NCBI GenBank assembly: GCA_007117055.1 | Contig: SKHH01000038.1 | Location: 1 to 47,447, forward strand | Direction of reading: 5' to 3' | From: Lishizhenia sp. | GTDB lineage: Bacteria; Bacteroidota; Bacteroidia; Flavobacteriales_D; Crocinitomicaceae | Length of the DNA stretch: 47,447 nucleotides | The DNA's letters: not shown here | Content: a report on this DNA, generated by a model with database tools, continued

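Follow-up and report, generated by a model that had tools for sequence, protein, structure and literature searches.

A search of the window with the plus-strand 21-mer of the earlier note, allowing up to three mismatches, returned 23 matches against 0.01 expected. A 55-nt weight matrix, seeded with 25 close matches and converged in two rounds, detected 91 sites scoring between 22.7 and 65.4 bits (84 on the minus and 7 on the plus strand), compared with 6.7 bits for the top site in 20 shuffled windows. The matrix recovered 82 of the 83 minus-strand positions listed before; the remaining one is also a genuine copy, with a spacer 1 nt shorter that makes it invisible to an ungapped matrix. Two weak copies were added to the list, bringing the total to about 92 (Table). 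Counting from the first C of CCACC as position 0, the logo of the window copies reads T(−6) W A A A Y C C A C C A A A C(8), followed by 10 weakly constrained positions and A(19) A C T C A T T(26) G/A(27). The downstream block ACTCATT (block 2) was intact in 90 of the 91 copies and the upstream block CCAC.AAAC (block 1) was conserved at about 90–97%, with little information in the 10-nt spacer and at positions 28–31. Since one weak copy with two block 2 mismatches was picked up, the matrix is able to detect degenerate copies, and practically none exist. The spacer between CCACCAAAC and ACTCATT measured 11 nt in 91 of the 92 copies, so that the distance between the blocks is constant instead of the variable N4-6 proposed before, and the block centres lie 22 bp apart, in agreement with the two helical turns estimated by eye. 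TCTCCC, taken at first for part of a universal consensus, is present in only 26 of the 91 copies, at positions 9–14 (10–15 in three of them). As already described, the element is not palindromic; it is asymmetric and lacks any inverted-repeat or hairpin character. Stray ACTCATT heptamers outside the elements were not depleted, with 4 in the sense orientation (one of them the copy with the shorter spacer) against 4.2 expected and 7 in the antisense orientation against 6.0.

Copies follow the downstream gene in orientation, including the flip at 45.43 kb between a minus copy and the plus copy that adjoins it back to back. The statement that a copy precedes almost every gene was too strong as a mechanical count, which placed one upstream of 71 of the 102 ORFs of at least 50 aa; once antisense shadow ORFs and over-extended starts are discounted, the fraction is about four-fifths of the genes. 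This corresponds to roughly one copy per 520 bp, ahead of some 80% of genes, and a few operon-like short runs have no copy of their own (Table). Similarly, among 68 cases that could be scored, the TAA of the element (position −6 or −5) is the stop codon of the upstream gene in 35, about half of the time and not usually. The warning that ORF callers read through the element holds for every copy in which this TAA and the ATG that follows are in different frames.

Table. Features of the window, of its left flank and of related contigs, in window coordinates. L031, L032 and L033 are shorter metagenome contigs related to the window.
Feature	Coordinates	Description
Copy with shorter spacer	32152 (minus)	
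ECF-type sigma factor gene (sigma-1)	6387–7007 (minus)	Recognisable protein
Two ParB-family genes	1046–2655	Recognisable proteins; ParB-like pair without own copy
GP88-like protein		Recognisable protein
PAPS-reductase-like protein		Recognisable protein
Mg-chelatase-C fragment		Recognisable protein
SprT-like protein		Recognisable protein
Small genes in operon-like runs	27.3–28.2 kb; 29.2–30.3 kb	Without own copy
Plus copies within the minus array	33537; 42331; 44270	No credible ORF
Empty units	45.2–45.4 kb	73 and 185 bp
Hairpins followed by a copy	16149–16114; 1010–985	
Local order swap	16662/16230	Window against 52-kb relative
Single-gene translocations	4630; 30707; 36732; 39031	Window against 52-kb relative; among others
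Window-only unit	Gene 19437–19781	360 bp; absent from L032
Extra cassette in L032	At copy 18609–18648	
Extra empty unit in L032	At copy 22400–22439	146 bp
Replacement	21.7–20.6 kb	One gene in L032, two in the window
Three extra cassettes in L032	Before the 17667 gene	One homologous to window 36246–36668, 18 kb away
MORN-repeat paralogue run	Beyond the left end	
Second ECF-type sigma gene (sigma-2)	Beyond the left end	
A few further copies, at operon heads	Beyond the left end	
NUDIX gene	Beyond the left end	
TonB-dependent receptor gene	Beyond the left end	Follows the preceding features
Block 1, window		CCACCAAAC
Block 1, window and L032		YCCACCAAAC
Block 1, 52-kb relative and L033		TC[A/C]ACCAAAC
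Block 1, L031		TTCACCCAGAC; most distant lineage

We found no description of the motif or of the element family. Megablast with 25 kb of the window gave no match among GenBank phages, exact-motif scans of IMG/VR gave zero or single chance matches, and IMG/VR scans anchored on proteins (the GP88-like protein, a 258-aa ORFan and their alignment) gave none. A scan of GTDB with one genome per species (185,579 species), using a pattern that matches 29 of the window copies, returned only five single scattered matches, and no genome carried the motif as a regulon. By these scans, neither GenBank phages nor IMG/VR nor the GTDB representative genomes contain the lineage, and its relatives turned up exclusively among metagenome contigs of JGI, ENA and Logan. 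Scanning the JGI metagenomes for the motif yielded the 51.9-kb contig Ga0102945_1000038 (hereafter the 52-kb relative), with 81 copies in the 41 kb read, in which five of the seven block 2 positions are invariant and the other two almost so. With the ParB-like protein and ORFans specific to the lineage as queries, protein searches added further short contigs with 48–89% protein identity, all of which carry the element in front of their genes. Across all of these lineages, block 2 is identical and lies at the same distance from the ATG; block 1 drifts.

We compared 23 orthologous pairs of elements between the window and the 52-kb relative, which belong to genes whose proteins are 36–78% identical. 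Pairwise identity reached 0.9–1.0 at C0, A2, C3, A5 and A20–T26, fell to 0.30–0.57 in the spacer, where random pairs give 0.27–0.38, and dropped to 0.13–0.35 at positions 29–31. It climbed again from position 33, where conservation of the coding type starts. Two blocks separated by a spacer of fixed length and free sequence is how sigma-type proteins read duplex DNA, and the footprint appears to be of this kind.

The A of an ATG occupies position 33, 6 nt past the last T of block 2, in 41 of the 91 window copies and 41 of the 81 copies of the relative, and an ORF of at least 40 codons begins at this offset in 38 and 36 of them, respectively. Rather than spreading smoothly over 5–30 nt, as the earlier note had it, the spacing to the ATG is bimodal, with one mode at offset 33, a gap, and a second mode at 44–61. 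Within the gap, offsets 34–40 contain no start of an ORF of at least 40 codons in either genome, except a single one in the window, at 35; starts resume at offset 44 in the window and, in the relative, at 41. Taking position 33 as the predicted +1, the leaders of the second mode measure 11–30 nt, mostly 12–28, and are A/C-rich, matching the short end of Bacteroidota 5′ UTRs, which have medians of 24–32 nt (PMC9723704). Such a pattern would follow from a fixed 5′ end, with the AUG either as the first base or behind a leader long enough for 30S loading. The leader class is also largely kept between orthologues: 10 pairs have no leader in either genome (including the GP88 pair, whose value of −6 in the relative is an upstream-GTG artefact), 9 are leadered in both, 7 of these agreeing within 5 nt, and 3 switch.

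A second signature was found by counting only the copies without an ATG at position 33 (50 in the window and 40 in the relative). Position 32 is a pyrimidine in 38 of the 50 and 38 of the 40, and position 33 a purine in 44 and 39 of them, respectively, so that Y at 32 and R at 33 hold in 76–98% of these copies in two genomes. At position 33, A and G are swapped for one another between the genomes. We regard this YR step as a probable start-site signature independent of translation, at which transcription may begin.

Three plus copies within the minus array are not followed by any credible ORF. Each of them is paired back to back with a minus copy some 20 bp away and points at the 3′ end of the preceding minus gene, whose bidirectional terminator lies some 45–65 nt further on. 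Two of the three have positional counterparts beside orthologous genes in the relative, and the 130 nt downstream of the ORF-less copies are 84% identical between two window paralogues (family D10). In such a setting a signal for translation or coupling would be useless, and a promoter would not.

The heptamer CTCTCCC is separable from the element and shows an extreme strand bias, with ratios of 37:1 for the window, 31:0 for the relative and 14:0 for the flank. Its place is fixed in the 26 elements that have it, and it occurs a further 11 times as a stand-alone sequence on the same strand, in several cases flanking bidirectional terminators, and also directly on either side of the sigma-2 gene. 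From the ORF-less plus copies, the complement of the heptamer, GGGAGAG, would be transcribed at about +18, in candidate transcripts of roughly 68 nt at 33576–33643, 42370–42442 and 44309–44376. This arrangement suggests either an operator or an sRNA-target pair.

Three roles had been put forward for the element: a promoter, an RNA processing or translational-coupling site, and a recombination scaffold. The two-block geometry, the YR step, the bimodal starts and the ORF-less copies favour the first and make the second unlikely. We consider it likely that the element is the private core promoter of a mobile-element-specific programme, read by an ECF-type sigma factor that the mobile element itself encodes. 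Block 1, TWAAAYCCACCAAAC, would be the −35-like and block 2, AACTCATTG, the −10-like part, both recognised on double-stranded DNA by host core RNA polymerase carrying the element-encoded sigma, for which sigma-1 is the prime candidate. Transcription would start at the purine 6 nt past the last T of block 2 (position 33). In 41 of the 91 copies this purine is the A of the start codon, which would produce a leaderless mRNA, and most of the other copies would give an A/C-rich leader of 11–30 nt (mostly 12–28). Because terminators are absent from most genes, each gene would be an autonomous unit of promoter and ORF within read-through transcription, with the upstream gene frequently stopping in the element's own TAA. 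The repeats of about 40 bp would at the same time serve as homology patches through which cassettes could be inserted, deleted, replaced or relocated without disturbing the expression of their neighbours. The sequence itself shows the repeat with its geometry and conservation, the spacing to start codons, the orphan copies, the sigma genes and the breakpoints of cassettes; from these we infer the promoter function, the exact start site, the identity of the reading sigma and the leaderless translation.

Several observations fit this promoter reading less well. Canonical ECF promoters combine an AAC at −35 with a CGT at −10, about 16–18 nt apart; in the element we found no CGT, and the AAC of block 1 is just 11–12 nt from block 2. 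Hand alignment to SigW- and RpoE-type ECF promoters was rejected, as the spacing does not fit. With this off-pattern spacing, the motif does not fix how the sigma-2 and sigma-4 domains would dock. The conservation of the 7-mer in 90 of 91 copies is stricter than in most −10 elements and counts against a promoter. With terminators at background level, read-through is probably extensive, and heavy read-through from tandem promoters without terminators would be compatible with a role of the element at the RNA level. Speaking for a private promoter, by contrast, neither sigma-70-type sites nor terminators exceeded shuffled controls in the window. As claimed before, the element is unlike the primary-sigma consensus of Bacteroidota (−33 TTTG, −7 TAnnTTTG); the two have no more in common than the last TTG of CATTG, and the complete consensus was found five times in the window, once ahead of the tRNA island. 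Finally, leaderless messages at a level of about 45% would be unusual for Bacteroidota, which also counts against the promoter reading; in Flavobacterium psychrophilum they make up 5.5% (PMC9723704).

An element acting in RNA, as an intercistronic landing pad for SD-independent initiation or as a cleavage site freeing near-leaderless mRNAs, would account for the strand-locking, the fixed 5-nt spacing to the ATG in 41 copies, the upstream stop codon lying within the element in about half of the cases and the few intergenic terminators. Bacteroidota are reported to initiate without SD sequences and to prefer unstructured A-rich starts (PMC6847099), and the element is indeed unstructured. The nearest formal analogue, the start-associated sequences of Cluster K mycobacteriophages, has likewise been proposed to be translational (PMC3203893). 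We nevertheless judge this explanation unlikely. The YR step at 32/33 is kept in the 50 window copies and 40 copies of the relative whose ATG lies elsewhere, leaders of 1 to about 10 nt are nearly absent (one window copy), which is unexpected for a landing pad, and ORF-less copies hold their place in the relative. Two blocks with a fixed-length free spacer are typical of a protein on duplex DNA, and we found no structure, covariation or complementarity to the 16S 3′ end; the sense-strand CCACC and CTCCC resemble the anti-SD and not the SD sequence. A structured RNA was rejected, since folding of the 55-mers predicted none (mean MFE −2.5 kcal/mol, mean z −0.08) and in an Rfam search of the window only four tRNAs reached the gathering score, leaving the element without a family match.

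The promoter reading calls for a sigma factor. The window lies within the 61-kb ENA metagenome contig ERZ27301260 k141_777838, which encodes two ECF-type sigma factors, one in the window and one beyond its left end. Both score above the NCBIfam sigma70-ECF cut-off (TIGR02937), sigma-1 with 114 and sigma-2 with 87 bits against 42.9, and they are 33% identical to each other. In the window as in the relative, a copy of the TCTCCC class with the ATG at +1 stands ahead of sigma-1. ECF sigma genes usually sit behind their own promoter (Staron et al. 2009, as cited in PMC9723704), and sigma-1 would have this usual self-preceding arrangement, which makes it a candidate reader of the element. Its nearest relatives are chromosomal sigma factors of Bacteroidota at about 40% identity. 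Their loci, which are ordinary chromosomal Bacteroidota regions without the element, served as a negative control: the 80 kb of DNA around them contained no element-like site (maximum 0.8 bits). No clear host-type promoter was found ahead of either sigma gene, and if sigma-1 reads its own promoter, some other factor must prime the circuit. The only clean host-type promoter (TTTG-N19-TAnnTTTG) precedes the opposite-strand tRNA island. From this promoter, the chromosomal Bacteroidota sigma homologues and the absence of SD sequences, the host is a member of the Bacteroidota.

Apart from the recognisable proteins listed in the Table, the window proteins are ORFans. PHROG matches were to accessory genes only, and there is no structural phage gene on the 61-kb contig, so that the phage origin assumed in the earlier note is unproven. 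By type, the genes would suit the accessory or early arm of a large phage, and the mobile element, which may be a phage or an integrated island, can be called phage-like only. At the end with the TonB-receptor gene, the composition profile shows no GC step and the AT skew falls. We detected no recombinase or integrase in the window ORFs, in several left-flank ORFs or in the precomputed Pfam matches of the fetched contig parts (Pfam and PHROG, excluding the first ~4 kb of the contig).

The element could also be a promoter that is read not by the resident ECF-type sigmas but by an alternative sigma of the host, or by some polymerase or other factor from the unsampled part of the genome. This we regard as quite unlikely. 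The departure of the motif from the ECF AAC/CGT pattern, the lack of a recognisable host-type promoter to prime either sigma gene and the chromosomal nature of the closest relatives of sigma-1, only about 40% identical, would be in keeping with such a reader, as would the fact that the sampled 61 kb are only a part of the genome. Against this, the scan of 185,579 species gave five lone matches, in none of the sampled host genomes does the motif form a regulon, the 80 kb around the chromosomal sigma homologues are free of element-like sites, and sigma-1 is conserved together with its own upstream copy in the relative.

Comparison with related contigs revealed extensive cassette turnover. About 38 of some 95 genes are common to the window and the 52-kb relative, arranged on a collinear backbone that is broken by local order swaps and by single-gene translocations (Table). 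Contig L032, which is ~76–88% identical in nucleotide sequence to the window at 17.3–22.8 kb, gave breakpoints at base level. The two differ by three cassette indels, one replacement and one three-cassette insertion that includes a translocated gene, and all breakpoints lie within elements or no more than about 13 nt away from them. At the site of the 360-bp unit, the single L032 element is a hybrid that corresponds to the upstream window copy through ACTCATTG and to the downstream copy from the ATG on. Empty units occur as well, two in the window and one in L032. The breakpoints at or beside elements thus support the recombination scaffold of the earlier note as an evolutionary consequence.

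It is very improbable, in our view, that recombination is the main role, with the repeats as sites of a dedicated cassette system resembling integron attC sites and expression secondary. About 90 small, mostly ORFan genes in the same orientation, each bounded by a repeat, the presence of empty units of 73, 185 and (in L032) 146 bp, and indels, a replacement, a translocation and order swaps with breakpoints at or beside repeats are all features of such arrays. Homologous recombination across 40-bp repeats, however, explains the hybrid junctions, as in the PeSLs of T4 (PMC2839356). The repeat has no inverted-repeat or hairpin character, no integrase or recombinase was found in the scanned ORFs and fetched contig parts, and the exact ATG distance, the YR step and the divergent back-to-back pairs would serve nothing in site-specific recombination. 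An integron, a CRISPR-like array and a MITE were rejected for the same asymmetry, the lack of a recombinase and because the "spacers" are genes. Barely credible is a set of operators for an array-coating or silencing DNA-binding protein such as the ParB-like pair: two ParB-family genes do lie at the downstream end of the array and the density of sites is high, but the sites of ParB and KorB are palindromic, the element is strictly asymmetric and strand-locked to genes, the start-codon distance and the YR step would be unexplained, and the ParB-like genes themselves have no copy. A parS/ParB operator was rejected for this asymmetry and gene-locking.

By its defining features the element is not an attC site, a host primary-sigma promoter, a canonical ECF promoter, a start-associated sequence (SAS), a PeSL (it has no terminator half) or a member of an Rfam family. 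By analogy, it appears to resemble phage-sigma promoters in its working and PeSLs in its evolution. PeSLs of T4-type phages are repeated short promoter cassettes in regions of small ORFans, where recombination between copies inserts, deletes and replaces genes (PMC2839356, PMC4122927). Hybrid junctions and cassette indels at element copies, as seen between the window and L032, are shared with them. In contrast, a PeSL consists of a host sigma-70-type early promoter and a stem-loop terminator, whereas the motif here bears no relation to the host consensus and hairpins precede just a few of the copies (Table; some also in L033). The density is far higher here, and the host phylum and the type of element differ as well. 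We know of no PeSL counterpart to the fixed join to the start codon.

Phage-encoded sigma factors provide the closest model for the proposed working. Promoters of this kind include the motif GTAAtg-N16-aCTA for gp47 of Salmonella phage 7-11 and tAATGTAtA for gp36 of phiEco32, with transcription starting 6–9 bp past the downstream block (PMC8948821). A sigma-70-family factor of their own, a private conserved motif and the same start geometry as the YR step would be common to both. Those phages, unlike the present element, have 6–8 such promoters heading middle or late operons, compared with ~92 in 47 kb and mostly one per gene here; the sequences are unrelated, and the system described here is known from sequence alone.

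The SAS of Cluster K mycobacteriophages are 13 bp long, carry the SD core AGGAG and are thought to be translational, with 93 sites over six genomes (PMC3203893). They share with the element the asymmetric one-orientation repeat 3–7 bp before start codons, a strong ATG preference, an upstream stop that sometimes lies inside, and conservation across subclusters before unrelated genes, and they are confined to the non-structural arm. In 41 copies here the spacing falls in the SAS range. The element differs in being ~40 bp long and bipartite, in its lack of an SD sequence, its ~92 copies, its YR step with a distant ATG and its ORF-less copies.

A comparable leaderless layout is found in the middle and late genes of Thermus phage phiYS40. 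In Deinococcus-Thermus, leaderless genes have a −10 motif 6–7 bp ahead of the ORF and account for about one-third of the genes of D. radiodurans (PMC12340547). A −10-type block 6–7 bp ahead of the start codon would place the first transcribed base at the A of the ATG. This architecture is present here, and leaderless translation would be expected from it. There, however, the primary sigma reads a TANNNT-type −10, whereas here the motif is private with an obligatory upstream block, and the Bacteroidota have few leaderless mRNAs. Similarly, the mimivirus early promoter AAAATTGA lies within 150 nt upstream of ~45% of genes (PMC5294985), and like the element it is one conserved private motif that gives a gene its own promoter instead of an operon. 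Mimivirus is nonetheless a giant virus of eukaryotes that brings its own RNA polymerase, and its promoter is a single octamer linked neither to the start codon nor to cassette recombination.

attC sites are imperfect palindromes that IntI recombines as folded single strands, and their cassettes are promoterless. Long one-directional arrays of small, repeat-bounded cassettes with variable content between relatives are common to attC arrays and the window, but the element has neither symmetry nor structure, the parts scanned contained no integrase, and it looks like a promoter itself. A wider and rather unlikely reading, which we offer tentatively, is an integrase-free counterpart of the integron. 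An undescribed family of phage-like elements of Bacteroidota would use one private promoter as the sole signal for ~100 autonomous, largely leaderless cassettes under an ECF-type sigma of its own, as a homology patch for gaining, losing and reshuffling cassettes and, through the optional strand-locked CTCTCCC, as the target of GGGAGAG sRNAs. These sRNAs would be made from the backward-facing copies, giving a self-contained regulatory circuit.

If the elements are promoters, they would represent known principles in an extreme form, a private sigma-type promoter at an unprecedented per-gene density and fused to start codons. To our knowledge, no denser array of private promoters (about 1 per 520 bp) has been described in a bacterial mobile element. 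Practically each accessory gene would be its own transcription unit, otherwise a trait of giant eukaryotic viruses, and some 45% of messages would be predicted to be leaderless in a phylum where leaderless mRNAs are rare. About 40 leaderless and about 40 leadered genes on one promoter would then constitute a natural set for testing leaderless and SD-independent initiation, and the sigma/promoter pair a compact orthogonal expression module for Bacteroidota, for which few genetic tools exist. Under the same assumption, the hybrid junctions would show gene-by-gene turnover via promoter repeats without polar effects, extending the idea of the T4 PeSLs to another phylum and another promoter type. 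In annotation, gene callers over-extend or mis-start many of the ORFs here, and the element provides an exact anchor for their start codons.

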